Below are positions 41,079 through 57,128 of a stretch of DNA of 64,000 nucleotides, in pieces. The position numbers were made by a program, and so were the translations under genes. How positions within the stretch are numbered: position 1 is the stretch's first letter; each line of letters starts with the position of its first letter. Source of the DNA: Barthelona sp. PCE (lineage: Eukaryota); contig JAUFOR010000001.1 of NCBI GenBank assembly GCA_040285745.1, positions 1-64,000 of the forward strand. Direction: 5' to 3'. The notes under the pieces are model-generated. The model saw nothing but the letters and a program-made list of their open reading frames with translations, did no database searches and had not been told where the DNA came from.

Positions 41079-43862
41079 CTATTCAATTCTTTGCACTTGT
41101 AGGGGATGTTCAGCAGCCAAATTCTCCCGGTCTGCAGCCACGCGAGCCCTTGTGCTAATCCTAAAAGGCATAAGAATCGGTGTTTCTATTTCGGTTTCAT
41201 ACTTAACCATTCCCAGAACCCTTAGATTTGTTTTCCAGTTAAATCTTTCCGTGTTATAATGCACATCGTCGGCCTCATCCATGTCCTGGATCAACTGTAT
41301 TAAATTAACTTCAAGGAAAGGTTCGGGATTTCTGCACTGCTGAACAGTACGTGAAGCCCTGTCTAATACAGGACACAATGAGTGATAATGAAAGAATGGA
41401 ATGAGTGTATCTTCTTTGTTTATGTTCAAAGCGACGATTGGAATCACAAATCTCGTCTCGCCGTCACGAGTTCTTGATTCAACTATGATCATTTGACACT
41501 TTTCTGTTCTGCTCCAATTACTTTCATCAATGTACTGTGGTGGCACATTGTTGTTCAACCGCGGATCCCGAACATTTGCAGGTAATGCAGAAAAAATATT
41601 AGTAAAAATGTCAGACTCTTCAACATTTAATTTCAAAAGAGCATTGCAAAATCCCCAACTCTGATTAAGTGTGTACCTGTCCACCCGAGATAACTCTAAA
41701 ATTGGTCGAATACACCACGGATGTTTGCTTTTGTATGGCCATCTATACTGAAATTGTTGACTTTTCAGGAAAAGAATGTTTAAATTATCTTTCATAGCCT
41801 TTACGGTATCATACAAAGATATCAATGCCTTCAGGTCGTGTGTTCTAAATAAGTAATCTTCTTCAGCTCTGATAGCAACGACAAACTTCAAGTTATTTAT
41901 CCCAACTTCGTCTAGATTCAAACTATCACGATATGGCTTACGCTCAATGCCTTTTTCTATCAAATTCGATAATTTATCAAGCGTTTCATAGTGACCTGAA
42001 TTAAAACAATGATAAGTTTTGAGCATTAGTGAACACAATGTATGAATCTCTTCAGGACTTTTCATATGGATAACAAAAGCATTTCTATTTTCTTTATCGA
42101 TACAAAACACATCACACAGCTTAACCTTGTCCTTATTTGACGTATATCCTACTTCAGTAACAACGTGAATCTCTTCATCCATCATCACTGCACCGCGTTG
42201 CAAACTGATGGTTGAACTGAATTCTGCCTCTCCATCGTGAGTACCGGCGACATTAACTGCTGGCCCTCGTATAACACCTCTCTTTTGGAAATATGGTGAG
42301 GCTAATCCCAGTTCGTGAAAATCCAAAATTTTTGACTCCAAAAATCTTCTTTTTTCATCCAATTTAGCTCTTTCAAAGTATCTCCACCCATGGTTTGAAT
42401 ACAAAAGATAACACCCATCAAGGGAAAATAATGCAGAACAACTTTTCCATAGATTTTTTTGATTTGTTGTTCCTGAACGCAATTCGATGTTGGAAAAATG
42501 TCTCTGCATTACATATTTTACCATGGGTGCATTGCAATTGAACATTCTTCCAAGATTAAGAAAAGAGTTCATTTCTGAAGTTCTTAATGTATCACGAATA
42601 CGATTATTACCATCATAACTATAAAACAATGATAGACGATCAACAATGTAATCATTACATTCATCACCATTTTCAAGATCCACAACATTGCCGTTCTTAA
42701 AGGCTTTACGAATTACTATCTCTCCATTTTCAAAAAAAGTCAGCGCAAGAAGACAAGAATCATTAATATCATCTCTGCATCGTGCTAGCCAAAAATTTTC
42801 TGCATATTGGTGATTGAAACAATTTGCTAAGGTCATAAAAGCCTCTTTCCATTCTTCCGAAAATTCTTGAACTTCAATTTCTGTTCTTTCCTCTTCCAAT
42901 AGATTTAACAATTCTGCTACATATCTATCAAAACGTTCTTGGAAACGTTCACCTTCGTGATATTCTTCATTTTCATACCATTTTATGAACCTGAATGCCT
43001 TCAACAAGGGAAACAAATCGTATTTGGCATTAAAATCGACAGTAACTTCTTCACTAGTAGTGGCAAAGTCAACATGATTTAATACCAATCTGTGATCAAA
43101 GAGTTCTACGTGACTTAAGTTTATGGAGCATACCTGATCAAGTGCATATGGTACTTCATTCTCAAAGATATTATGATCTTCAATAAATTGAAGCAATGAA
43201 ACACTTGAATCGTGATCTTCCAACCCAAAAGATAGGGGGGTATACTCCACTGTGTTTGACTTCCACCACCTTACAACATCATCATCAGTTAATGTTGAAT
43301 TAAACTTTATCTTAGTAAACAGACCATCATCTGCTCTTCTATCCAGTTTAATTGAAGAATCAACTTTTGCTGTTAGTTTTTCAACAAATCCCTTGCTGAA
43401 CGACACAGGAGTTGCCTTTAATTGATGAGATTCCTTAACAGGACCATCTTCTTCATCATCTATCCCATCATCTATCCCAAAAAATCCAGCCATCTTTCTT
43501 GAAAAACCCAAATCAAAATTTAATAACAAATCATTAAAAACGTTCTGTGCTTTAAGATCATGGTTCAGTATGAACACTTTTGCCTCATCTTCAAACTCAC
43601 ATTCCCCAAAAACAAAATCATAGTCATAATTGTACTCATGAGTCAGCTTACTATTTGCATCAACACTTTTCATAATTTTCTTCTTCACACGCGAATATTT
43701 ATATGCCTCAACGTTGTTGAGAACTTCTTCGACGTCTCCACGCCTGATAACCATTCGAATAGGAGTTACCTTAACAAATGGAAGCTTGTTATTAAAGCAA
43801 TAAATAAAAAATGCATTTCTAACTTTATCAACAGAATCTTTCACAAAAGCAATACGCTTCAT
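41079..43862 (-). CDS. Hypothetical protein with a DUF6119/TIGR04141-like region
   Basis: Long ORF. DGCYLLYSNHGW, EAEFS, KVKLCDVF...VIHMK and KFVVAI resemble the bacterial family from memory; the family call is tentative. Confidence 0.5.
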   Translation of the reverse strand: MKRIAFVKDSVDKVRNAFFIYCFNNKLPFVKVTPIRMVIRRGDVEEVLNNVEAYKYSRVKKKIMKSVDANSKLTHEYNYDYDFVFGECEFEDEAKVFILNHDLKAQNVFNDLLLNFDLGFSRKMAGFFGIDDGIDDEEDGPVKESHQLKATPVSFSKGFVEKLTAKVDSSIKLDRRADDGLFTKIKFNSTLTDDDVVRWWKSNTVEYTPLSFGLEDHDSSVSLLQFIEDHNIFENEVPYALDQVCSINLSHVELFDHRLVLNHVDFATTSEEVTVDFNAKYDLFPLLKAFRFIKWYENEEYHEGERFQERFDRYVAELLNLLEEERTEIEVQEFSEEWKEAFMTLANCFNHQYAENFWLARCRDDINDSCLLALTFFENGEIVIRKAFKNGNVVDLENGDECNDYIVDRLSLFYSYDGNNRIRDTLRTSEMNSFLNLGRMFNCNAPMVKYVMQRHFSNIELRSGTTNQKNLWKSCSALFSLDGCYLLYSNHGWRYFERAKLDEKRRFLESKILDFHELGLASPYFQKRGVIRGPAVNVAGTHDGEAEFSSTISLQRGAVMMDEEIHVVTEVGYTSNKDKVKLCDVFCIDKENRNAFVIHMKSPEEIHTLCSLMLKTYHCFNSGHYETLDKLSNLIEKGIERKPYRDSLNLDEVGINNLKFVVAIRAEEDYLFRTHDLKALISLYDTVKAMKDNLNILFLKSQQFQYRWPYKSKHPWCIRPILELSRVDRYTLNQSWGFCNALLKLNVEESDIFTNIFSALPANVRDPRLNNNVPPQYIDESNWSRTEKCQMIIVESRTRDGETRFVIPIVALNINKEDTLIPFFHYHSLCPVLDRASRTVQQCRNPEPFLEVNLIQLIQDMDEADDVHYNTERFNWKTNLRVLGMVKYETEIETPILMPFRISTRARVAADRENLAAEHPLQVQRIE

Positions 43863-44139
43863 GAACACCTAACACAAAAACAAACAGTTAAAAGGAAGAA
43901 AATACAAAAACACAAAAATTATTCAAAAAGAGGTTATCTCACATTTCTTTTTGACTTGGACTTCCTAATTAGTGTATTGTGTGTGTAATCACATCGATCT
44001 ATCAAAATATTAGTTACTTCCTTCATCATAAAAAATCATGATCAATTTTTGATTAGAAGCAATCACGCCACAAAAACATCACTGAATAAATGATACTTTA
44101 CTATGAATAATGAAATAGTGGGTATAGCGTGAGTGTGTA

Positions 44140-44763
44140 TCAATCAGAGTAAGAAAACTCATTAATAATGCATAAAAACTTCTCTTGCGATAATAGAAAT
44201 AATTCTTCATATTTAATGGTTGTAGACTTTTTAAACTCTTCAATTATGTGTTTTTCGATGCGGGACGTCATCAGAGGTACTTTGCATGAAGTAATACACC
44301 TGAAAAAAACAGGCCGACTTTCAAAAAAATCTGTATTATCAATTAAACTACTTAAATTCATCAATTTCCTGTAGTTTTCGTCCCCTTGGAAGTTATGTTC
44401 AATGAAATCCTTATTGAAAGGCGATTCTTCTGATGATGAATTCAAAAAAAAGCCATCCACAACCATGAAGAAATTCTTTTGGTTCTCAGAGAGCACGACG
44501 GTGCGTGTAAACCCTCTGCTACAAAAGAAATACTCGGTCATGATACTTTCCTTTACGAAAAATCTCAGAAATGCTGGGATTGAACTAACTTCATTATACG
44601 ATCTTTTAAGAGTGATTACGCCCAGGGAACGGGGTGTGTTCATTCCAAACACAAGGTCTTTCTTGTCTGTATCGCAGAGGAAATGAAAAAGTTCGTAAAA
44701 CTCTTTGGACTCAGTCCAATCTGGAAAACATGTATCAGATATGGACAACGCTTCGATTTTCAT
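44140..44763 (-). CDS. Hypothetical protein, 207 aa
   Basis: ORF only. Confidence 0.6.
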   Translation of the reverse strand: MKIEALSISDTCFPDWTESKEFYELFHFLCDTDKKDLVFGMNTPRSLGVITLKRSYNEVSSIPAFLRFFVKESIMTEYFFCSRGFTRTVVLSENQKNFFMVVDGFFLNSSSEESPFNKDFIEHNFQGDENYRKLMNLSSLIDNTDFFESRPVFFRCITSCKVPLMTSRIEKHIIEEFKKSTTIKYEELFLLSQEKFLCIINEFSYSD

Positions 44764-44852
44764 CCCCGTAGATTTTTTTAAATCGCCAAAATGTGAGAAA
44801 AATGAAAACCATCTAAAGTATATTTGAATTGGTTACAAATGCGCTATAAATA

Positions 44853-45485
44853 TTAATGAACGTAAAAGGCAGGTGAAACCGAGCACCTACCACGCGCATT
44901 TCCCAAAACTAAGAACTTGTGTGTCTGACCAAGATTAGTATTGAACTCAAATATTAGAAAAGCTACACAGAGTAGTATTGCAATTGAAATTAGAAGATCG
45001 GCTACGGGAACGATCCAGTCACCTGGTTGATCAAGGGGTACAATGTAAACTATATAATTCTTGATTGAAAAGCTAGTTGCGTAAACAGAAAGACAGAAAA
45101 GTACTATTATCACAACATAATACATATAAATAGCTCCAATGGGAATTGTCCTCAATTCAGCTGGAAGCTCTTCATATCGTTCTCTTCTCTGTTCAAGATT
45201 AAGCTCCTTCTCTTTCTCACCATCAAATCCCTCAATGGATACCTCATCAAAACTTCGGTCTGACAAACTTTCATAATTCTCCAAATCACTATAATCCAGT
45301 CGTACAATATCAAAACCATCCACATTTGGTATAAAAAGCTCTTCCATAGATGTTTCAACATTAATAATGGAGGCAGACTCCAAAGGTCTGAATGTGTGAG
45401 TATCTGTTACTTGTATGACTTCAGCACTTGTTAGCCCATCAAATGATCCGCCAGTCGAAAGAAAATCGTCAGTTCTATGAAACAT
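44853..45485 (-). CDS. Hypothetical two-TM membrane protein, 210 aa
   Basis: Acidic N-terminus and two hydrophobic helices. Confidence 0.65.
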   Translation of the reverse strand: MFHRTDDFLSTGGSFDGLTSAEVIQVTDTHTFRPLESASIINVETSMEELFIPNVDGFDIVRLDYSDLENYESLSDRSFDEVSIEGFDGEKEKELNLEQRRERYEELPAELRTIPIGAIYMYYVVIIVLFCLSVYATSFSIKNYIVYIVPLDQPGDWIVPVADLLISIAILLCVAFLIFEFNTNLGQTHKFLVLGNARGRCSVSPAFYVH

Positions 45486-46631
45486 TGATCATATTTGCTT
45501 AACACAGTTTCAGATATGGAAGGAAATTTGAAAACAATTACTTGTTCAGTATTTGCTTTGCAAAAATGCTATCTATGTGACCTGTTCCTCTTTTAGTTCC
45601 TTTGCAACACATAGAAAACACACTTCTTAGTTTCAGATATGAAAAAATCTTTGCTTCTCAATTCATTCGTTCTTTTATTTTTAAAAGCTTTGTAGAAGCA
45701 GCAGTGGCAGTAATAATGCTTTTAACCGTATATAAACGCACTTTACTCGAATACTGAAAAAACTCAAGTACGTTAGTTTTTATGGTATGTTTGTGGTTAA
45801 AGGGGGGAACCCTTATTCGTGCGACCAAAAAATTGAAGTTAAAGCAACTACAAGTATTGTTAAAGTAATTCAGTCCCATATATCACTTAGTATGCCTAGA
45901 GTTAGAAGAAATGAGGAGTCATTGGCCCCTAGGGCAGATGGAGGGCTTGTGGTTGCTGAGGGCAACTATATATCAGTTTTTTCTGATTTGCAGAATAGCA
46001 CACTCAAATCCATGACTGAGAGTGACTTTATTGCTATACTTGACAATTCAATCCTGCTAAACAACACAGATAGAACTAAATTCGGCTTTGAAGATGGATA
46101 CTATAACACAACAAGTTTTGGTGAAAGTTCTGCCACAAACTCACTTGATCTTTGTGTGTACGACAACCTCTACCGCAACGACTTCACGAAGTCGGAATTC
46201 TTTCTGCCTGCTGAATGCTATCAAGAGCTTTCATTCGATGTTATTTTCCTCAACAAAACCCATTGTATTGTCGAATTACAGGGAGTTTCTGGCTCGACAG
46301 CGATGCGGCCATGCCTGGTGAACGTTTCAACGAACAAACACCGTGCTTTTGATGATTATGTGATGATATCAAACAAATCGACTGTGCAGTCCGGTATTGT
46401 TCTTTTCCGTTCAAATGAGACAAAAAAACTGTGTCTGTACAAGCCCAGCCCAGAAGACACGGTGGATTGTCCGCTGATCAGAGAGATTCATGATGTTGAC
46501 CCTTTCGACTTGAAAATTTTCAACTGCTTGAATGCAAAGGTCAATTTGCTTGCTAAAATCGACAATTTACACATCAGAAGTGCGTTTCTGGTCGACGAAC
46601 ACGGTTTCGTGATTAATCTACTTAATATGTT

Positions 46632-46764
46632 GGTGACATACAGGCGCTAGCCTTCAGACTTTATACTTGAGGTAGTAAACAGCGGAGGGGGACGAAGCGA
46701 ACCGTCATGTGTAGTAGGTGTCCGTAGGACCCGATACGGTTTTTCTTACCTTTTTCAAAAAAAA
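46632..46764 (+). repeat. Split direct repeat A1 (133 bp)
   Basis: Identical to 52482-52614 (GGTGACATAC...TTTTTCAAAAAAAA). Confidence 0.97.
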
Positions 46765-46801
46765 TCTTACTTTAGTATTGCTGCGCAAGAAATTAATTGC
46801 A

Positions 46802-48298
46802 ATGACATACTTTAGAGCGGAAAGGCAAACGAAAGAACAAGTTGCGCGCGCTATCCAGCATAGATGCGAGACGTATATTGCGCGCCTGAGTGTCGTGGTT
46901 ATGGAGACCTTGTGCAAGGTCCACGAGGCGGATCCCGCCGGTAAAGCCCACTTGATTGAGGCTCTCCCGAGTTACGGGTGCGGCGAGTACGCCGACGTAA
47001 TGCTCTCACCGTGCGTGTTGAGCGAGGACTTCCGGGGGTGGTTACAAGCATTGGGCGAAGATGAAAGTCAACAAGGTGTTGACAAGGTCCTTCCAGCAAT
47101 TTCCTTTAGCCTAGAGAGGTTTAGGGAACTTGCAAATCTTTTTGGCATGCGCCCATCCAAGTCATTAGCCAAGAATATTGAGGAGTCGGACATTAGAGGA
47201 GTCCGGGAGATGATTAGAGCTGCCGAAAATCACTGGAAGGCAGCTCCGGCTCTCATAACGCAGGAACTGGATGCGTTCAGGGCAGCAAAGAGGGAGGCCG
47301 ACAAGATCGAGGGAATATCGGACGTCGACAAGAAACAGCTCATCAAGACGATTACGCAACAGGTAACGCATGCGAAGGAGCAGGCGCTGAACGAGACGCG
47401 GAAGCAGACAATGGCCGCGTGGGAAGAAGAACCATCCGATGACGAGACCGACACCCAGCACACGTCTTCGAACGCAGGAATGAACACCGCCATGCAGATC
47501 GCAAGGGACGCTACCGCTTTGGTGAGCGAGACGATGAAAGAGGCCAGGCAGAGTAGGATGAGAGCCACAACCTATAACGAACCTTTCGATGCGGGCATCC
47601 AACAAGACAAACTACTCAGGAAGGTCAAACACCAATGGCAAAGAGGTCTGACATACGATAAGTTTACTGCCGCCATGGACAAGTTCCTCGAGGCGGAGAT
47701 AAAGCGCAACCCCACGATCTTCGCTGGCGATATTGATCTCGGGCTCTGGAAAGCGGACGACGTCCTTCCGGACGCGTTTGTTGAGGAGGTGACGGACGAC
47801 CACAAGGATAATTGGTTCCGCGAGTGGCAAATTCGTCTGAGGGACTTCAAGACGATCTACGAGGACAAGGTCGGATCCCAGTATGAACACGAGTGGCAAA
47901 CCAAGCGTTTGTACTTGCTGATGGAAGCCGCAGCGGAAATGGCGTTGGGAGACACTCTCCTACTAATCGGCAAGCTGTATGAGGAACGGCCACACCTCAT
48001 CCCGACCTTCATCGCTGCCGTCTCTCCATATGGTCCCAGCCGGGCCAACAGGGCGTCAGGTATCTACAACGACGAACTCAACGTCGACCACGTGCCTGAC
48101 AACTGGGTTGACGAGAATCGCGTGAAGCAATTCCTCACTAAGACGCTGGGAGTCGGTAGCTCCGGCATCATGGTCGAGTTTGACCCCACCGCCACCAAGA
48201 AGGCGTTCAACCATTCCACGAGAGCCCCCAAGCGCACGCACCGTCCTAAGACGCAAAAGAAGAAACAAGCGTTTAGCGCCAAAGAGGAGGAGAAGTGA
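46802..48298 (+). CDS. Retrotransposon ORF1, putative gag-like protein (498 aa)
   Basis: First ATG just after A1; helical with a basic C-terminal tail. The gag call rests on position only; no CCHC knuckle seen. Confidence 0.7.
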   Translation: MTYFRAERQTKEQVARAIQHRCETYIARLSVVVMETLCKVHEADPAGKAHLIEALPSYGCGEYADVMLSPCVLSEDFRGWLQALGEDESQQGVDKVLPAISFSLERFRELANLFGMRPSKSLAKNIEESDIRGVREMIRAAENHWKAAPALITQELDAFRAAKREADKIEGISDVDKKQLIKTITQQVTHAKEQALNETRKQTMAAWEEEPSDDETDTQHTSSNAGMNTAMQIARDATALVSETMKEARQSRMRATTYNEPFDAGIQQDKLLRKVKHQWQRGLTYDKFTAAMDKFLEAEIKRNPTIFAGDIDLGLWKADDVLPDAFVEEVTDDHKDNWFREWQIRLRDFKTIYEDKVGSQYEHEWQTKRLYLLMEAAAEMALGDTLLLIGKLYEERPHLIPTFIAAVSPYGPSRANRASGIYNDELNVDHVPDNWVDENRVKQFLTKTLGVGSSGIMVEFDPTATKKAFNHSTRAPKRTHRPKTQKKKQAFSAKEEEK

Positions 48299-48642
48299 AA
48301 TCGTTCGTCTCCCCCGCGCGCGATAGTAAATATCTATCCGACAAGGGCGTGGGAGACGCAAATGATCCCAATGCGGTCACAGCGCTCGCGGACAGGGTCG
48401 GCGAGCTCTCCATCGAGAACGTCAAATTGAAGAAGGAGATCAAGAGCCTCAAGAAGGAAATCCCTAAGAAGCAACTCAAAGCCGCGAAGATGGAACTTCG
48501 CGCAGCTACCAAACTCGTGGAGCTCGAAGACAAAAGACTAGAAGCCATCAAAGCTCGGGAAAGGAGCACACAGAAAACAAAAGCACCTGAGGACGTTAAA
48601 CGGGATAAGCCCCGTAAGGGAGAAAGCACCAACAGCTACTAG
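48295..48642 (+). CDS. Retrotransposon ORF2, small coiled-coil protein (115 codons, GTG start or reached by recoding)
   Basis: K/E-rich heptads (LSIENVKLKKEIKSLKKE); bridges ORF1 and ORF3 in a different frame; GTGA overlap with the ORF1 stop. Confidence 0.6.
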   Translation: MKSFVSPARDSKYLSDKGVGDANDPNAVTALADRVGELSIENVKLKKEIKSLKKEIPKKQLKAAKMELRAATKLVELEDKRLEAIKARERSTQKTKAPEDVKRDKPRKGESTNSY

Positions 48643-48652
48643 CGTGCAGAAG

Positions 48653-51600
48653 ATGATCTCCAAGGAGATCAACAAACTCAAACACGAGGTTGTAGATGAG
48701 CGGAATAACGTCCAAATCTCAAGAAATCCGAAGGAGGTAGTCGGCACAGACACCATGCAGTGGCCGGCCGCGGCGCCACCAGTAGCTCTGCTGAAGCACC
48801 TCCCACCCGACATCTTCCAGAAGGGCGGCCCAAGTCAACGAGTACTCAAAGAGGTGGTCCTAGGGGTTACCGGAACATGGGATATCCTCGGAACAGACCA
48901 GATGAAGATCAATTCAGCCGACACGCCCACGGAACAGTTCGTTAGGGACGCCGCGCGCGTCGCTGGCCTCAGCTGCGAAGAAATTGAGAAGACAGTCCGA
49001 CTGCTCGTGACTGAGGGCGTAACGCGCGACATGGTCGTTATCGAAGGAAAGAAGCCTCGCAGGCAGGAGCCAGTACGTCACTGGTACAAAGACGACGCTG
49101 TCGAATTGAACCTGGCCGTAACCGCGCTCAAAAGTAAGGACCTGATCAAAGAGGTCCCCATCGAAGAGATCGAGGACGAACGAAGGGCATTCATTTCCAT
49201 CGGCGCGGTCCCGAAGAATGCAGAACCGGACTCAAACAACATGTTCGCTCCGACGCAGAAGTTCGAATTTGACGTCACATCGCCGGACAACGAGCACAGG
49301 GTTATCGTCGACTGTACTAACACGAACTCTATGTTCGCCAACATTCCAATGGAACTCATCAAAACCCACTCTCTCGAGATTGTCATGGGTGGCAATCTCA
49401 TGTATTCCGTCGACGCAAAGGATGGTTTCACGCTCATTCCACTGGACGAAGAGCTACAAAAACTGTTCTCATTTACACACGAAGGTAAGCTTTATCAATG
49501 CACTAGAATGCCGTTCGGAGTTTCATTCGGCCCGGCCATCTTCGCCCGCATGATGAACCTGGCAACGACCGCAATGCGTGCGTTGGGATTCAACATCTGG
49601 AGCTACGTCGACGACGCTTTCGGATGGGAACGATCCCTCAGCAAAGCGAGGAACTCGATGATGCTGTTCATAATCATCGCGTCGAAACTTGGCATCAAGC
49701 TAAACTACAAAAAGTCCGTCAGTCCTTCGTACAAATTGGACATCATCGGCTACACGCTGAGCACCGACGACCAGTCTGACGGCGGCCGGCTAGTCTCAAC
49801 AATTAGACCGTCGGACAAGAACATCAGAAAGATCAGAGAGATGGCTCGCGTAATGCGAAATAGAATCGACACAGCAGAACAAATCCCTGTCAGGGACATC
49901 ATGAAGCTCGATGGCAAACTTGTATCATTTGCCAACGCCTCGACGATTCTTCAGCGGGTTCACCTACAGCTACAAGCAGTACTGAAGGATCTCGACGCCC
50001 AATACGATAACGCGATATTTGACTCGAGCAGGAACAAGGGCCTACGCCTTCTCCTACCTCTTCCACTAGCCGACGCACTCACGAGCATCGTTGAATGTAA
50101 CTTTGAACCGAAGACGCTGAGCTGCGGTAGAGCTAAGGTAACATTACTGAGCGACGCCATGAAGGACCAGAAACATATAGGCATTGGAGCGAAGGCATAC
50201 CCAGACGACGACCAAGAGCTCTCGTTCGAACTTCTCCACAGGATGGGAGTGAACGAGCAAGGAGCAAGAAGGATGTTGACACTTCTCGACGATCTGCCAG
50301 AACAGGAAAGAGTAGACATCGAGCAGAACACTGTCGCAACAATCGCGGAGCAGGAGATGGTACCGATCGTCGAGCTACTCAAGACTAAGGGCAGACAGCT
50401 GAGGAACACCGAAGTCGTCTGGTATTGCGACAACACGAACGTATGCGCCGCTGTCGCGAAGGGCTACAGCAAAAACAAGGTCCTCAACAAGGGGGCCCGC
50501 ATAGTGATGGAACTGTGCGAAATGTGGGACGTGATCGTCACACCAATCTACATCAACTCAGAACAGAATTATCTTCCAGACAGCATCTCAAGAGGAGCAT
50601 CGTCGGAGTCGTGGACCAACTCTACGACATTCGTGCACGAGATTCTCCCAGCTAGGGTAATCGAGTTCAAGACATCCGTCGTCGCAAGCCTCTACGAACC
50701 TGGACACATCCCAGCACTGTACGTCCGCGGTTTCCAGCCCACAAAAGGAAAGTCCAGGAGATCAACGAAAGCCGCACATGTGACAAGACAATGTCTCGGA
50801 CAAGACCTTATCTCTCTAGGCGAGTATGACCTCAAACGGAATGCGCTCAAGGTCGACAATGTTGCGAACGGGACTGCACACTGTACAGGTAAGCTCAAAA
50901 TCGTCGAAGGATTCGATGACACAAGATACACCGTCCCTCTATCGAATATGGCGATCATCACGAGAGACAACGAAAGAATCGAGGCAACAGTTCCGACTTA
51001 CTCCGCAGCCACAAGCTTAGAGATAGTCATTCTCAAAGTGTGCAGAACCGGCGCGGAAGTAGATGTGATCCTCCCCGGACCACTCCCGTCTTGCCCATTG
51101 TGGGCTACAATCGCACAAAAGACCATCCCATTAAGTGATGGATCCATAAAGATAAGAGTTACGAGAGAAAAGGTTCTCGGCGGCGAACCCGAGGACTACA
51201 AGCCCGCTGGAGCACGCACTCAGAACCCGGTACAGGTACGGGGCAAATCACTATCTCTGGCAGATCTGTTCGCCATCCCACCGTCGATGGACTACGACGA
51301 AGTGCTCGAACTCTTTCTGAAAAAAGGAGCGCACCAACCAACGAGGAACATGCTACATCGCTTCGGGAACTTCGTTCAAAAGGTGCACAGCACAGAAATA
51401 GTGGACGTCGCATGCCCAGGAAACGAAAAGAGACTTGAAGAGCTGATAATCGAGTTCAGATTCAGACTCGAACAGGAAACAAAATCGAAGAGGCGTGCGA
51501 ACGGCGACACCACCGAAGTATGGAGGTACACCTCAGATACGATTAACAGTTACATTTTCCACCTGCGTAAAGGACTGCTGGTTCTGAAAATGTTCATCAC

Positions 51601-52465
51601 CGACAAGAAATCTCTCCTCACGACCGAAGAACTCGAGCAACTCGTCCAGCTTAGGGCGGCAGTAATCAGATGCACACTGAGCGAGAGCTCAGAAACACAG
51701 AAATTCGCCATCAGCACGTCAGCAATCAGATTCCTGGCGGCAAGAGAGATTGAAGAGCTTAAAGCACTGGTCCAGGAAGGTACCACGAAGAAGAAGGCCC
51801 TTCAGAAGCTAAACAAAGTAAGAAGAAGAATTGCTATGATGTCATCAATGTACAACTTAGGATGCAGAGCGGCGTCTCTTGCCGCAGTCAAGACCCACCA
51901 AATTGAAGTCTCAAAATCCGGCGATGTCACGGTAACGCTGGACAAAGTGAAGAACCAACAGGGTCGACCAACCAGCTACATGATCCCCAGAAACGTATGG
52001 GAGCTGGGCACACTGCACGACTATTTAAACGACGCTGTGCAAAGAGCAAAAGAAGGAGGTAAAGAGTTTATTTTCTCGAACGGCGGAGAAGCCCAGAGCG
52101 TCTCGAATGCATTAAACACCATGTTCCGAGATTACAACGAGAAAATCAAGCAATCTGACCACAAGAATGCAAGCAAATTCAGAGTATTCAAAATGACAGC
52201 TCATGGCCTTAGAGCCGGCAGGGCAAAAGAGATAGCACAACATCCAGATGCGACTGTACGAGTATCAGCGCAAGGAATGGGTCTCTGGAAGGATGTGAAG
52301 GCGATGAACCTTGACTATCTCACGAAACCACTATTGACGTTTGAGGAACGAGAGGTGTTGAGTCCGATGGAATTGGAAGGATGGGTTTTAGGCCACTTCC
52401 CGGACGAAACACCCTCTACACGTGAAGGCGAGCCTTCCCACGTGAGCGTTCCCCGACGTCAATAA
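48653..52465 (+). CDS. Retrotransposon ORF3: RT-RNase H-(degenerate MTase-like)-tyrosine recombinase polyprotein (1270 aa from first ATG)
   Basis: RT: SVDAKDGF, RMPFG, YVDD (49604-49615). DIRS-type RNase H: LLSDA, AEQE, YCDN, NYLPDSISR. YR: LGCR, KVKN, HGLR, GLW, DYL. Confidence 0.93.
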   Translation: MISKEINKLKHEVVDERNNVQISRNPKEVVGTDTMQWPAAAPPVALLKHLPPDIFQKGGPSQRVLKEVVLGVTGTWDILGTDQMKINSADTPTEQFVRDAARVAGLSCEEIEKTVRLLVTEGVTRDMVVIEGKKPRRQEPVRHWYKDDAVELNLAVTALKSKDLIKEVPIEEIEDERRAFISIGAVPKNAEPDSNNMFAPTQKFEFDVTSPDNEHRVIVDCTNTNSMFANIPMELIKTHSLEIVMGGNLMYSVDAKDGFTLIPLDEELQKLFSFTHEGKLYQCTRMPFGVSFGPAIFARMMNLATTAMRALGFNIWSYVDDAFGWERSLSKARNSMMLFIIIASKLGIKLNYKKSVSPSYKLDIIGYTLSTDDQSDGGRLVSTIRPSDKNIRKIREMARVMRNRIDTAEQIPVRDIMKLDGKLVSFANASTILQRVHLQLQAVLKDLDAQYDNAIFDSSRNKGLRLLLPLPLADALTSIVECNFEPKTLSCGRAKVTLLSDAMKDQKHIGIGAKAYPDDDQELSFELLHRMGVNEQGARRMLTLLDDLPEQERVDIEQNTVATIAEQEMVPIVELLKTKGRQLRNTEVVWYCDNTNVCAAVAKGYSKNKVLNKGARIVMELCEMWDVIVTPIYINSEQNYLPDSISRGASSESWTNSTTFVHEILPARVIEFKTSVVASLYEPGHIPALYVRGFQPTKGKSRRSTKAAHVTRQCLGQDLISLGEYDLKRNALKVDNVANGTAHCTGKLKIVEGFDDTRYTVPLSNMAIITRDNERIEATVPTYSAATSLEIVILKVCRTGAEVDVILPGPLPSCPLWATIAQKTIPLSDGSIKIRVTREKVLGGEPEDYKPAGARTQNPVQVRGKSLSLADLFAIPPSMDYDEVLELFLKKGAHQPTRNMLHRFGNFVQKVHSTEIVDVACPGNEKRLEELIIEFRFRLEQETKSKRRANGDTTEVWRYTSDTINSYIFHLRKGLLVLKMFITDKKSLLTTEELEQLVQLRAAVIRCTLSESSETQKFAISTSAIRFLAAREIEELKALVQEGTTKKKALQKLNKVRRRIAMMSSMYNLGCRAASLAAVKTHQIEVSKSGDVTVTLDKVKNQQGRPTSYMIPRNVWELGTLHDYLNDAVQRAKEGGKEFIFSNGGEAQSVSNALNTMFRDYNEKIKQSDHKNASKFRVFKMTAHGLRAGRAKEIAQHPDATVRVSAQGMGLWKDVKAMNLDYLTKPLLTFEEREVLSPMELEGWVLGHFPDETPSTREGEPSHVSVPRRQ

Positions 52466-52481
52466 ACCTACTTCAGTATAA
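52383..52481 (+). repeat. Split direct repeat B1 (99 bp), overlapping the end of ORF3
   Basis: Identical to 52616-52714; contains AATAAA overlapping the ORF3 stop. Confidence 0.97.
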
Positions 52482-52614
52482 GGTGACATACAGGCGCTAG
52501 CCTTCAGACTTTATACTTGAGGTAGTAAACAGCGGAGGGGGACGAAGCGAACCGTCATGTGTAGTAGGTGTCCGTAGGACCCGATACGGTTTTTCTTACC
52601 TTTTTCAAAAAAAA
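52482..52614 (+). repeat. Split direct repeat A2
   Basis: Identical to A1; followed by one extra A (52615). Confidence 0.97.
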
Positions 52615-52615
52615 A

Positions 52616-52714
52616 GGGTTTTAGGCCACTTCCCGGACGAAACACCCTCTACACGTGAAGGCGAGCCTTCCCACGTGAGCGTTCCCCGACGTCAATAAAC
52701 CTACTTCAGTATAA
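52616..52714 (+). repeat. Split direct repeat B2 (right end of element)
   Basis: Identical to B1. Confidence 0.97.
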
Positions 52715-54209
52715 TCCATTATTGAAGGAAGCCCGTCTTTCAAGCAATATAAAAGCATTTGTTCTTGAGAAACTGACCGATGAAACTCTTAAAATAACGT
52801 TTTTTATGGGTTCTCTGTTCAGGAAAAACGTTTTCAAAGGACATAGCATCGCAATTGAATTTGGCAAGTTTAGAAAAACAATGGGTATACTGCCCTGTAA
52901 CTTATTCTATTCGACTCCCACTGACATCGACTTGGAATCGTTGGATTTTGCTAACAAAACTGCTATCTATGGAGCAAAGAGTGAAAAAAGTGTACTTGGC
53001 CGCCTTTCCTTTCTGGATAGATCATGCACTTCTTTTTCTCTTTCACAGCATCCACAGCGCACACAGTACAACTCGTGCTTGACGTATTTTGATGATATTA
53101 CTATGGGACTCGTTTACTGTTATCTTGACAGAGATCTCATCATCTTGCAGCCCTTCAATCCTGACCTTAAAGACAGCGACTATAACATCTTGGTGAATGA
53201 ACTTAAAACACCCCATTTCAGGGATGGTCGTACCATTTTCTACGCAACTGTCTTTTGCCATGAAAATAAGCTCTGTCATTTGGAGCTTTGTTGTGGAGAG
53301 GATGGCGTGACTGTGCAGCCGCTGACCAGAGTCAGAGGTGAACTACTTGACTGGATGTATGGAAGATCATTGGTACTTGGTGCTGGTGGTGTGTATCTCG
53401 GTGAAGAGCTGATTGTTGACAACGAAGGTGCGGTTATAGAATGTCACAATGTCTGTGCTGCAGGAGAGAATACCCTTGTCGTGTCACTGCCCGAGAATGC
53501 CGTGTTTGTTAGATTTGATAGCGATGGAAGAATTGAAACCAGGATTAAAATCCCATCCGAGGGCGAAACGCATCGCCTTTGCCCGCACCATATGCGCGAA
53601 GACCATAACTTTCAATTATTTCAGGTTTCTGAAGGTTTCAACGATTTCAGCATTAAGTGTATTAATTGGGATACTGGGGTCATTAGTAACTCTGTTAGTG
53701 TTCCTTCGGAGGGATACTTCACATCTGGAAACAACATTGAATTTGCTTTTCAAAAAACAGAGTTCGAATTCGCTATGGACGGTGAGCTTACTTTTGAAGA
53801 CCGGAAAAGTAGGCTTAAGTTATCTGTAGAACATGACTACGGGCAGGATTGCACACAAATTTTTGAGTTTGATAACTTTGTGTGTTCTGTATCTACATTT
53901 CCTACATCATTTCATGCGAAAGATGAAAAAATTACTGTGACATATGATATGGCTCATTTTGTGTCCAAAGCGGACATTCGCCATCTCTACTTTGACGTCA
54001 GTGAATGCTGCAAGATGGTTAACGAGTGTAAATTTGGTGAATAATTATGCAGGTTTACTTAATTCACTGTAAATAATAAATTTTTGACTTTTTAACAGCT
54101 TTTGGTTAACGATACCCCTCACCTTGGCTATTTACGAAATGTAAAAGTTACTTTTATGCTAAGAATCTTTAAACTCCTTTCAAGTCAGTAGTACAGTCAA
54201 TTTATAAAG

Positions 54210-57128
54210 ATGACTGATTTAATGACTGATATTACCGTGGGCCTGACAACCGAAGTCGTCAACAATAGACTGGACAAATATGGTCCTAACGACTTACCTC
54301 CTGCTCCCACCTCATCATTCTTTAGACTACTTTTAGAGCAATTCAATGATAGGATGTCCCTATTTCTGTTATTTAGTTGTTTACTTAACGTTATCCTGAT
54401 TTTTTGGGATGATGAACCCATTACGTGGCGCTCTGTTACCGAACCTGGTGTCGTTCTACTCATCCTCGCTGCCAATGGCGTCATTGGTGTTCTTCAAGAT
54501 CTTAACGCTGAAAAAGCTGTTCTTTCACTAAAGCAATTTGAAGTGCCAATGTGTAAGGTGCTTCGAGACGATTCGTGGCACGTTGTGGAATCTGTACATC
54601 TTGTTCCTGGTGACGTTATCGAACTCACAGTAGGAGATATGGTTCCTGCTGATTGCGTTGTGCGAAGCTTCCCTTACAAGCAGCATCTTGAGGTTGTGCA
54701 GTCTGCATTTACAGGAGAAACAAACACCTTCTTCAAGGACGCATTCACCGGCACCGAATTCATAGAATCTGCCGAGGTGGACTTGAACAGTAAGACGATG
54801 GTCTTCAGTGGTACCCGCGTTGCCTCTGGCCGCGCAATCTGCACAGTAACCCACACTGGCCGTAACCGTGTGCTGGGTGGTATACAAGATGCCCTATTCG
54901 AGGATGACGGGAACGTTTCACCTCTTACAACGCAACTTGATGTATTTGGCGAGCAACTGTGGTGGATCATTGTTGTCATCTGCGCGCTTGTTTTTGTCAT
55001 TAACATTAAGAACTTCACTCTTCCTGAACACAGCAGTAAGGCCAAGGCAGCACTGTATTATTTCAAGACAGCCATTGCGCTCGCCGTTGCAGCCCTCCCA
55101 GAGGGCCTCCCCACGGTTTTGACGATCGTTACCGCGCTTGGATCACGCAGAATGGCGAAGAAAAGTATCATTGTGCGCCGTCAACGTGCTCTCGAAACTC
55201 TGGGCTGTGGAAGCGTTTTGTGTACAGACAAGACTCAGACAATGACGACAAACCGTATGGTTGCCCACACTGTGTGCTATCCAACGGACGAATACGAGGA
55301 GATCGAGGAGCATGCTGTGCAGCACAAAGGATTCCTTCCGTTTTCAGGAGCTTTCCCTGAAGAATTTAAGGGTATCACGAACTCCATCGCTTTGAAACTC
55401 ATCTGTGTTCTTTGCAACCACTCGAAGCTTGAAGAAAAACGCGAAGAAAACAACATTTCGGTTCGCTACTTCGGATCTCCCACAGAGGCTTCGCTCATGT
55501 GTCTCGGTGAGAAACTGGGCGTTTGCACCATCGGCCGCGAGGATACCTCCTGGGAAAGCGGCGCTCTCCGCGCCACGTACACCGAGCTGGTTAACCGTTA
55601 TGAGATTGAGCACCTTGAAGATTTCACACGTGAGCGTAAAATGATGACTATTGTCGTCCGCGACCGTCACACAGATCAGGTCTTCGCACTCACAAAGGGT
55701 TCTCCGTCCATCATCCGAGACACCTGCTCTTCTTTTATGAATCCATCAGAAAAACAGGGTTCATTCTATGACAAGAGAGATATCAGGCAGTTTGATACGT
55801 TCTTGCGCAACGCGGTTGGAGATGTTGAGCACAAAATGGCGCTCGAGCACGGCAGCCGCATTTTGGGATTCGCAATCAAGCCTCTCGCTGATAAGTACGA
55901 TTTGTCAACAATTGAAGAGAACATGACATACGTCGGTTTCGTGTGTATCCAAGACCCCCCTAAGGAGACAGTTAGACCAGCAATGGAGGATTGTAGAAAA
56001 GCAAACGTTCGCGTCATGATGATTACTGGCGACAGCCTGTCCACTGCACTGTCTGTTGCTCTGGAGACAAGTCTCATTGACAAAGAGTACGACCATCACA
56101 CCGTGCTGAGCGGCGCTGAATGGAATGCTCTATCAGATGAGGACAAGGTCGATCATATCAAGACACTTCGCGTCCTAGCACTGGCAACACCGATGCACAA
56201 GCGCGAGGTTGTTGAGTTATTGCAGGCCGAGGGCGAGGTTGTCGTCATGGTTGGCGACGGTGTCAACGATGCTGCTGCAATCAAGCGAGCAGACGTTGGC
56301 GTGGCTATGTGTGACGGGTCGGACGTCACGAAGCAAGCAAGTGATATGATTTTGCTTAACAACGACTTCGCAACGCTCACAAACGCAGCCATCAGGGAAG
56401 GGCGTATAATGTTCTTCAACTGTCTTGCCTTTTTGAAGTTTTTGATTTCCAGCAATTTCGGAGAAGTTGCTTGCATTTTTTTCGCCACGCTGCTCAATCT
56501 ACCATCGTTTCTCAGTCCCGTGCAGTTGCTATGGGTCAACCTTGTCACCGACGGACTGCCCGCAACAGCCCTCTCTTTCAACAAGCCTGATAAGAATATC
56601 ATGAAGCAGAAGCCAAGGAAACGCAACGAAAAACTGGTTACAACCGAGCTCTTTATTAGAATGGTTATTGTGGGCATATACATCGGCGTTGCAACTGTTT
56701 TTGCGTACTGTTTTGAATTCGTATACGCCAAAAACGGGCCCGGTATGTCATGGAGCGAGTTCTTGATGTTCTGCAAGGAGATGGTGCTCTCACACGAATT
56801 ATTAACTCCTGAACTGCAGTATTCGATGGCCAAGGCATCAACACACGCCCTCAGCGTACTTGTTGTTATTGAGATGTTTAATGCATGGAACTGTCTGTCA
56901 TTTTCTGAGAGCATATTCACCTTCTCATTCAACACGAACTGGCTTGTCCTGTTTGCCACGCTGCTCTCACTGCTTCAACACTACATCATTCTTGTAGTCC
57001 CGTTCTTGCGTGAAGTCTTCGGAGTTGTGCCCTACAACGTGTACGACTGGATTTTTATTATTGCAATTAGCTTGCCTGTTGTGCTCGTTGAAGAAGTGTA
57101 CAAGTACATCTATCGCCGCTGTAAATAA
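54210..57128 (+). CDS. P2A-type (SERCA-like) Ca2+-transporting ATPase
   Basis: LVPGD, FTGET, AALPEGLP, CTDKTQT, MITGD, GDGVND, SSNFGE, QLLWVNLVTDGLPATAL, IEMFNA. Confidence 0.93.
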   Translation: MTDLMTDITVGLTTEVVNNRLDKYGPNDLPPAPTSSFFRLLLEQFNDRMSLFLLFSCLLNVILIFWDDEPITWRSVTEPGVVLLILAANGVIGVLQDLNAEKAVLSLKQFEVPMCKVLRDDSWHVVESVHLVPGDVIELTVGDMVPADCVVRSFPYKQHLEVVQSAFTGETNTFFKDAFTGTEFIESAEVDLNSKTMVFSGTRVASGRAICTVTHTGRNRVLGGIQDALFEDDGNVSPLTTQLDVFGEQLWWIIVVICALVFVINIKNFTLPEHSSKAKAALYYFKTAIALAVAALPEGLPTVLTIVTALGSRRMAKKSIIVRRQRALETLGCGSVLCTDKTQTMTTNRMVAHTVCYPTDEYEEIEEHAVQHKGFLPFSGAFPEEFKGITNSIALKLICVLCNHSKLEEKREENNISVRYFGSPTEASLMCLGEKLGVCTIGREDTSWESGALRATYTELVNRYEIEHLEDFTRERKMMTIVVRDRHTDQVFALTKGSPSIIRDTCSSFMNPSEKQGSFYDKRDIRQFDTFLRNAVGDVEHKMALEHGSRILGFAIKPLADKYDLSTIEENMTYVGFVCIQDPPKETVRPAMEDCRKANVRVMMITGDSLSTALSVALETSLIDKEYDHHTVLSGAEWNALSDEDKVDHIKTLRVLALATPMHKREVVELLQAEGEVVVMVGDGVNDAAAIKRADVGVAMCDGSDVTKQASDMILLNNDFATLTNAAIREGRIMFFNCLAFLKFLISSNFGEVACIFFATLLNLPSFLSPVQLLWVNLVTDGLPATALSFNKPDKNIMKQKPRKRNEKLVTTELFIRMVIVGIYIGVATVFAYCFEFVYAKNGPGMSWSEFLMFCKEMVLSHELLTPELQYSMAKASTHALSVLVVIEMFNAWNCLSFSESIFTFSFNTNWLVLFATLLSLLQHYIILVVPFLREVFGVVPYNVYDWIFIIAISLPVVLVEEVYKYIYRRCK

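Follow-up and report, generated by a model that had tools for sequence, protein, structure and literature searches.

A probable Ngaro-type retrotransposon of Barthelona sp. PCE with reverse transcriptase, RNase H and a predicted tyrosine recombinase in one reading frame

We analysed a 64,000-nucleotide stretch of DNA from an anaerobic protist, Barthelona sp. PCE (GenBank assembly GCA_040285745.1, contig JAUFOR010000001.1, positions 1 to 64,000; hereafter the window) and found that one of its open reading frames (ORFs), ORF3, is probably (about 0.82) the pol-like gene of a 6,083-bp Ngaro-type tyrosine recombinase (YR) retrotransposon of the DIRS order. ORF3 joins reverse transcriptase (RT), RNase H and a predicted YR in one frame. 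On this reading, the Barthelona element is a new and apparently active Ngaro-type member of the order, and its fused frame is unusual, with precedents. All parts of the element and the interrupted host ORF lie on the forward strand, and coordinates are those of the window.

Domains encoded by ORF3

ORF3 (48644-52465) consists, in the standard code, of 1273 codons from a GTG, or of 1270 codons from the ATG at 48653, and its sole stop codon is the terminal one. The frame encodes an N-terminal region, RT, RNase H, a segment of about 230 residues without a recognisable family (region X) and YR. The original prediction, made from the sequence without database searches, had claimed a single stop-free ORF with RT, RNase H and YR, and this was borne out. 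All eight positions named in it are in frame and encode the predicted residues: D257 (49412), Y321-V-D-D324 (49604), D504 (50153), D596 (50429), R1075 (51866), H1187-G-L-R1190 (52202), W1215 (52286) and Y1225 (52316).

The RT core (49274-49885, residues 211-414), with D257 and the YVDD box at 321-324, is supported by a Pfam match, an alignment and a structural model. RVT_1 matched residues 241-372 (E=1.3e-14), and the region was also aligned to gypsy-type RTs by phmmer. With residues 170-660 as the query and a limit of E=10, 26 proteins were retrieved; one belonged to the element's own family, and the others were Ty3/gypsy-type polymerases with 23-30% identity. None of the 26 carried PF00589, and there was no DIRS-order protein among them. 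We aligned residues 150-690 of ORF3 with 19 of these hits; P0004, the hit from the element's own family, was excluded, as were six of those that were longer or weaker. In all 20 sequences the RT residues D257, D323 and D324 were invariant, as were the RNase H DEDD residues D504, E571, D596 and D646, with the context D-x-[IL]-S-R.

The RNase H domain (50132-50608, residues ~497-655) had no Pfam match, and the NCBIfam ribonuclease H family was found only at E=0.17. Since the profiles gave no convincing match, its assignment is based on the alignment, with the four DEDD residues, and on the model. AlphaFold2, run on the RT-RNase H alignment, returned a mean predicted local distance difference test score (pLDDT) of 59.2, with 70-90 in the RT core and 55-76 in the strands and helices of RNase H; an insertion at residues ~507-564 was modelled poorly. 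In a Foldseek search with this model the RT of cauliflower mosaic virus was the best match (E=3.8e-16), and the foamy virus protease-RT, the Moloney murine leukemia virus RT and the Ty3 RT were also found (E up to 1.1e-13), the alignments to RT-RNase H chains spanning 470-510 columns. The RVT_1 match, the invariant columns and the fold matches together identify an RT with RNase H, as expected for the DIRS order.

The C-terminal part of ORF3 (51314-52462) is a predicted YR, with a helical N-terminal part and a catalytic domain containing R1075, K1103, H1187, R1190, W1215 and Y1225. The top families for this part in both profile libraries were recombinases, namely Phage_integrase in Pfam and XerC and XerD in NCBIfam. 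With residues 885-1273 as the query, Phage_integrase (PF00589) was found at E=3.1e-4 and 21.0 bits, below its gathering cut-off of 27.1 bits (18.4 bits with the whole ORF); XerC (E=1.2e-3) and XerD (E=7.7e-3) were far under their curated cut-offs. The profile scan suggested as a check of the original prediction thus succeeded for RVT_1, gave no Pfam match for RNase H and placed Phage_integrase below its cut-off.

We aligned the YR part with E. coli XerC and XerD and phage P1 Cre, taken from annotated records, using MAFFT L-INS-i. R1075 shared a column with R148 of XerC, R148 of XerD and R173 of Cre, K1103 with K201 of Cre, H1187 and R1190 with H289 and R292 of Cre, and W1215 with W315 of Cre, H266 of XerC and H270 of XerD. 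R173, K201, H289, R292 and W315 of Cre are catalytic, and their numbering fits the Cre sequence used; five of the six residues of the R-K-H-R-H/W-Y set lie in Cre's catalytic columns. The loose pattern R..K..HxxR..[HW]..Y occurred in one of the 30 stop-to-stop frames in the window that reach 250 residues, namely ORF3. The features of residues 900-1273 in the ESM Atlas were similar (0.97) to those of eukaryotic clusters of ~350-residue proteins, Phage_integrase being present in 20-36% of the members of some clusters and ALOG in one cluster; this likeness is a lead, not a test. The PHROGs search yielded nothing meaningful, and a metagenome contig scan that used all of ORF3 as the query produced 47 pattern matches, of which none was confirmed.

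No rve or endonuclease family was matched, and the sub-cut-off YR profiles and the five aligned residues point to a YR instead of a DDE integrase or endonuclease, as in the DIRS order. Taken with the architecture of the element, the profiles and the alignment make it very probable that the C-terminal domain is a YR. Elsewhere in the element, no Pfam match to a protease, methyltransferase, rve or endonuclease family was found, and a motif scan of ORF1, ORF2 and ORF3 detected neither D[ST]G nor CCHC nor [DNS]PP[YFW]. The absence of D[ST]G agrees with the original prediction, in which no aspartic protease motif had been spotted.

Region X (50624-51313, residues ~661-890) lies at the position where DIRS and PAT elements carry a methyltransferase. 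A PAT-like (DIRS-group) element whose methyltransferase has decayed beyond recognition into region X would therefore have to be considered. PAT elements share split direct repeats, their methyltransferase sits between RT/RNase H and YR (PMC4157794, PMC9210276), and the location of region X, and approximately its length, are those expected of such a domain. However, residues 660-900 matched no Pfam family at E up to 10 and nothing in PHROGs, and they contain no [DNS]PP[YFW] motif, so that neither the Pfam search nor the motif scan revealed a Dam-like methyltransferase. Moreover, region X differs by 0-1 substitution among the copies of the element, like the rest of ORF3, and bears no mark of decay. 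We consider a PAT-like origin very unlikely.

Element architecture and insertion into a host ORF

The element (46632-52714) has the arrangement A1-internal-B1-A2-B2. The 133-nt repeat A1 (46632-46764) is 100% identical to A2 (52482-52614) according to blastn, and the 99-nt repeat B1 (52383-52481), which contains the last 27 codons and the stop codon of ORF3, is 100% identical to B2 (52616-52714), the 3' end of the element. B1 directly abuts A2. This is the split-direct-repeat form of Ngaro, PAT and VIPER elements (PMC8547959, PMC9210276, PMC6681497, PMC8969392). Ngaro-like elements are defined by the order gag, RT/RNase H, YR and by the lack of a methyltransferase (PMC4157794, PMC9210276, PMC13465315). 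The Barthelona element has split direct repeats, no detectable methyltransferase domain and the order of an ORF in the gag position, RT/RNase H and YR.

Other layouts did not fit. A DIRS1-like layout was rejected, as no pair of inverted repeats was found in 42000-55000, and a VIPER-like layout was rejected because the YR is C-terminal, which is the wrong domain order. An LTR (long terminal repeat) retrotransposon was rejected in view of the lack of LTRs, of an rve domain and of a protease.

The element interrupts a host ORF. The upstream half of this ORF occupies 45787-46631, in an ORF (45787-46650) that runs into A1, and the open frame resumes directly after B2 as the downstream half (52715-54044). 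In silico removal of 46632-52714 restored one 724-codon host frame without a duplicated flank; the lack of a target-site duplication, expected for the DIRS order, was thus observed for one insertion. A match of frame between the flanks would by itself occur by chance in one case out of three, and the long ORFs abutting both ends of the element add weight. The split host ORF matched no Pfam family, and its halves are recorded as separate proteins of 287 and 412 residues on the same contig, each alone in its 90% cluster. The element is thus an insertion into a host ORF, which fits insertion of the recombinase type.

Several further features of the locus were noted. By eye, the host sequence directly left of A1 (46615-46631) and the B end 52698-52714 match at 9 of 17 nt, 8 of them in the first 9 positions; in this one insertion the likeness may reflect a target preference or be fortuitous. 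The stop codon of ORF3 is overlapped by an AATAAA (within 52460-52468) that lies 17 nt short of the end of repeat B and recurs in B2, so that a polyadenylation signal may be present twice. The G+C content is 0.49-0.53 in the element (window 46000-52000) and 0.34-0.46 in its surroundings, and the coding strand of the element has a strong A-over-T skew (0.12-0.28). At 54210-57128, 1.5 kb downstream of the element, there is an uninterrupted gene for a 972-residue P-type cation ATPase (Cation_ATPase_C, E=7.2e-49; E1-E2_ATPase, E=1.4e-39).

Copies of the element, its upstream frames and the weight of the evidence

ORF3 is 98% identical to a 1923-residue hypothetical protein of Barthelona sp. PCE, whose 90% cluster has five members on contigs of 1.33, 1.42 and 2.13 Mb. 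All five annotated models span ORF3, at 97.6-99.9% identity. One of them, P0008, is identical to ORF1 of the window over 497/497 residues (100%) and shares a 1,334,541-bp contig with the flanking host ORFs, and we therefore regard it as the window's own copy. The four other copies (P0004, P0006, P0007 and P0009) have no gap at residues 617-1266 and 0-4 genuine substitutions. Three of their models are irregular elsewhere: P0004 omits residues 357-383 (27 residues of RT), P0007 omits residues 594-606 (13 residues of RNase H, including D596) and garbles 607-616, and P0009 exits ORF3 six residues early and continues for ~690 residues into a downstream host gene. These irregularities look like gene-model patches over indels. 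The P0009 copy, at another locus on the same contig, also adjoins or sits in a gene of the same orientation.

Contigs from two public DNA runs of one study, X1 and X2, cover 50494-51523 and 51549-52462 without an indel, as judged from the 16 of 21 pieces listed in the comparison, and the three base differences seen in them (50227, 50809 and 51445) are all synonymous; a third run, X3, contributed no contig to this comparison. Runs X1 and X2 are labelled as two organisms, and both contain pieces of the element at at least 99% identity; the two labels may stand for a single organism, or close relatives may have the element in common. The proposed check that other copies and reads keep the fusion was thus passed, and the fusion is real and belongs to the master sequence of the family. 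That the continuous frame is an artefact of assembly or polishing of a long-read genome is hardly credible. The assembly is Nanopore-based (PMC11316075) and a difference in homopolymer length was seen at 48618-48620, but the four other copies read alike through residues 617-1266, the contigs of two runs agree, and an artefact is more likely to break a 3.8-kb frame than to create one.

The identical repeats, the near-identical copies and the interrupted host ORF show that the element has apparently been active recently. Under the replication model for such elements, the repeats should be nearly identical when insertion takes place (PMC6681497).

Upstream of ORF3 there are two further frames. 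ORF1 (46802-48298) encodes 498 residues from an ATG, has no Pfam family and no CCHC motif, and is called gag-like by position alone. ORF2 (48295-48642) encodes 115 coiled-coil-like residues and matched bZIP_1 at E=6.1e-5, under the cut-off of that family. All five annotated models skip a GT...AG stretch of 32 nt (48295-48326), a putative intron, to link ORF1 with ORF2. The window is gene-dense, with 31 long and uninterrupted ATG ORFs of at least 250 residues in 64 kb, and a 32-nt intron in the element would therefore be unusual here. A -1 ribosomal frameshift between ORF1 and ORF2 was also considered and is less favoured, the overlap of the two being short (48277-48298) and no canonical slippery site (X XXY YYZ) having been seen in it by eye, with no motif scan made. 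ORF2 is separated from ORF3 by the GGG run at 48618-48620, where removal of one G sets the two in frame. In three of the five models (P0004, P0006 and P0007) ORF2 reads directly into ORF3, and in run X2 one contig, with a depth of 2.8, lacks one letter at 48618. The product may accordingly have ~1270 residues (window copy), ~1380 residues (ORF2 and ORF3) or ~1850-1900 residues (all three ORFs).

The domains could be fused in the DNA and still work as separate proteins, like those of a three-ORF element, through internal initiation, through host proteolysis, or because a decayed YR is replaced by a recombinase acting in trans. Some copies may be damaged, such as those whose gene models lack 27 residues of RT (P0004) or 13 residues of RNase H including D596 (P0007). 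Nevertheless, neither a protease motif nor a protease family was found in the element, all six catalytic residues of the YR are present, no other integrase is encoded, and near-identical copies on three contigs argue for a competent master with the same frame. We therefore consider separate working proteins quite unlikely.

A number of results weigh against the assignment of the element to the Ngaro type with a fused YR. The placement among Ngaro, PAT, DIRS1 and VIPER was made from layout and gene order, and the nearest RTs found are the Ty3/gypsy polymerases described above, at 23-27% identity, with no DIRS-order hit. The YR was assigned from profile scores below threshold (21.0 vs 27.1 bits). 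Y1225 lies 10 residues past W1215, where the spacing in Cre is 9, and fell outside the Tyr column of Cre. In hhalign against a XerC/XerD/Cre profile the Arg-I box alone was aligned (R1075 with XerC R148; E=0.0064, probability 5.9%). With the YR part as the query, phmmer found only the element's own family among 1.84 billion representatives (E up to 0.001), a word-seeded search of proteins of 213-681 residues returned nothing at E up to 10, and PDB sequences included no recombinase match, only a designed helical protein (E=0.017). Single-sequence AlphaFold2 modelling of residues 885-1273 gave a pLDDT of 39.5 and left the fold unsupported, although the order of secondary structures in this low-confidence model (helices, a three-strand sheet at 1086-1114, helices) is compatible with a recombinase. 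Because the copies are too alike and too young, the kept fusion says little about long-term selection. In the window copy an extra G, either genuine or introduced in assembly, separates ORF2 from ORF3, and the link from ORF1 to ORF2 may be the 32-nt intron or something else.

Some of these results would also be expected if the element belonged to an independent lineage, in which barthelonids or organisms related to them combined a Ty3/gypsy-like RT-RNase H with a highly divergent, Crypton-like recombinase, so that the Ngaro layout would be convergent and the fusion lineage-specific. The RT hits, none of the 26 from the DIRS order, and the YR without a relative at E up to 0.001 agree with this scenario, and it has been argued that YR retroelements arose several times and exchanged modules (PMC4157794, PMC6681497). 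On the other hand, the word-seeded search is insensitive, and published trees put Ngaro RTs near those of gypsy elements and caulimoviruses (PMC6681497). In addition, the best look-alikes of the whole protein in the ESM Atlas are eukaryotic clusters with RVT_1 and Phage_integrase that are commonest in Cnidaria, a group with many Ngaros (PMC4157794). We consider an independent lineage unlikely. Its strongest form, an active barthelonid-specific lineage in which a single polypeptide lacking a protease and made up of a coiled coil, RT, RNase H, an unknown domain and YR, possibly with ORF1, would both copy the RNA and recombine the cDNA (complementary DNA), is improbable to the same degree. A Ngaro-type element of the DIRS order remains the reading that we prefer.

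Proposed replication and relation to known elements

For a Ngaro-type element, replication can be outlined by a model of split-repeat replication whose details are reportedly those of Poulter and Goodwin. According to this published model, a transcript running from A1 into B2 would be reverse transcribed by the RT and RNase H. The internal B1-A2 copies would let the RT restore complete ends, so that the cDNA is circular or can be circularised and contains a B|A junction, and the YR domain would then recombine this junction with the target, leaving no duplication. The model is mentioned in PMC6681497. Since no protease is encoded, a single polypeptide probably supplies RT, RNase H and YR; in most copies it would be extended at its N-terminus by the coiled-coil ORF2, and it may also be joined to ORF1. 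Such a product might act preferentially in cis, on its own coding RNA.

A description of a YR retrotransposon in a metamonad was not found among the papers listed for Barthelona or, by title or abstract, among those on metamonads, the word retrotransposon does not occur in the Barthelona genome paper, and the phrase RT-RH-YR was not found in the literature searched. The element is therefore a possible first record of a YR retrotransposon in metamonads. The Barthelona element, apparently active and with all its enzymes in one frame, in the small gene-dense genome of a culturable protist, could be a compact model for the integration of split-repeat YR retroelements, which to our knowledge has been investigated by experiment only for DIRS-1. 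Its use as a gene-insertion tool is speculation.

The original prediction was right that in the DIRS order the YR is typically encoded in a separate ORF. In agreement with PMC6681497, this is the case, with three ORFs each, for the Ngaros of Cafeteria (PMC8547959), for Xenopus Ngaros (PMC9210276), for the amphioxus Ngaro (PMC2632668), for SymbioDIRS (PMC5890265) and for DIRS elements in general (bioRxiv 10.64898/2026.05.21.726589). Its further suggestion of a possibly new DIRS-order architecture was not supported. In all groups of fungal Ngaros the YR ORF can lie in the frame of RT-RNase H or be frameshifted, with no statement on whether a stop codon intervenes (PMC3783388), and two TATE copies of Bodo saltans have gag-like, YR and RT/RNase H parts in a single ORF (PMC6681497). 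Among the whole-protein look-alikes in the ESM Atlas, one cluster, found mostly in Cnidaria, carries RVT_1 in 98% and Phage_integrase in 52% of its 62 members, and another, from Porifera, has RVT_1 in 100%, zf-CCHC in 40% and Phage_integrase in 32%; these are predicted proteins, and some may be merged gene models. The fused frame is thus a variation already noted in this class and leaves the knowledge of these elements unchanged. The element also has a recombinase that is an orphan in sequence and an unexplained insert of 230 residues, region X.

Among known systems, the Barthelona element is most readily compared with Ngaro-like elements, such as DrNgaro1 of zebrafish and those of fungal clades and of Cafeteria burkhardae. 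It shares with them the A1-[ORFs]-B1-A2-B2 layout, a length of ~6 kb, the order of gag-position ORF, RT/RNase H and YR, the lack of a methyltransferase, a protease and a DDE integrase, and the lack of a target-site duplication. A G+C content above that of the surrounding DNA is also a feature of the Cafeteria Ngaros (PMC8547959). In contrast to Ngaros such as those of Cafeteria, Xenopus and amphioxus, in which RT/RNase H and YR form ORF2 and ORF3, the Barthelona element has both in one frame, with the ~230 residues of region X between RNase H and YR and a coiled-coil ORF2 upstream; its YR is too divergent for a hit by a single sequence, and its host is a metamonad.

The TATE and VIPER elements of kinetoplastids, which are protists too, are YR retroelements and likewise have split direct repeats (PMC6681497), but their order is gag, YR, RT/RNase H, whereas the YR of the Barthelona element is C-terminal. 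PAT-like and DIRS1-like elements also have RT, RNase H and YR, and PAT shares both the split direct repeats and the position of YR downstream of pol. Unlike the Barthelona element, in which none was detectable, they carry a Dam-like methyltransferase, and pol is as a rule overlapped by a YR ORF in a different frame; DIRS1-like elements have, in addition, inverted terminal repeats and an internal complementary region, whereas no inverted repeats were found in the Barthelona element. Finally, the predicted recombinase resembles Cre, XerC and XerD in having R, K, H-x-x-R and W/H in the same columns and with similar spacing, its Tyr following 10 residues past the Trp. It differs from them in showing no significant pairwise similarity and in being fused to an RT.

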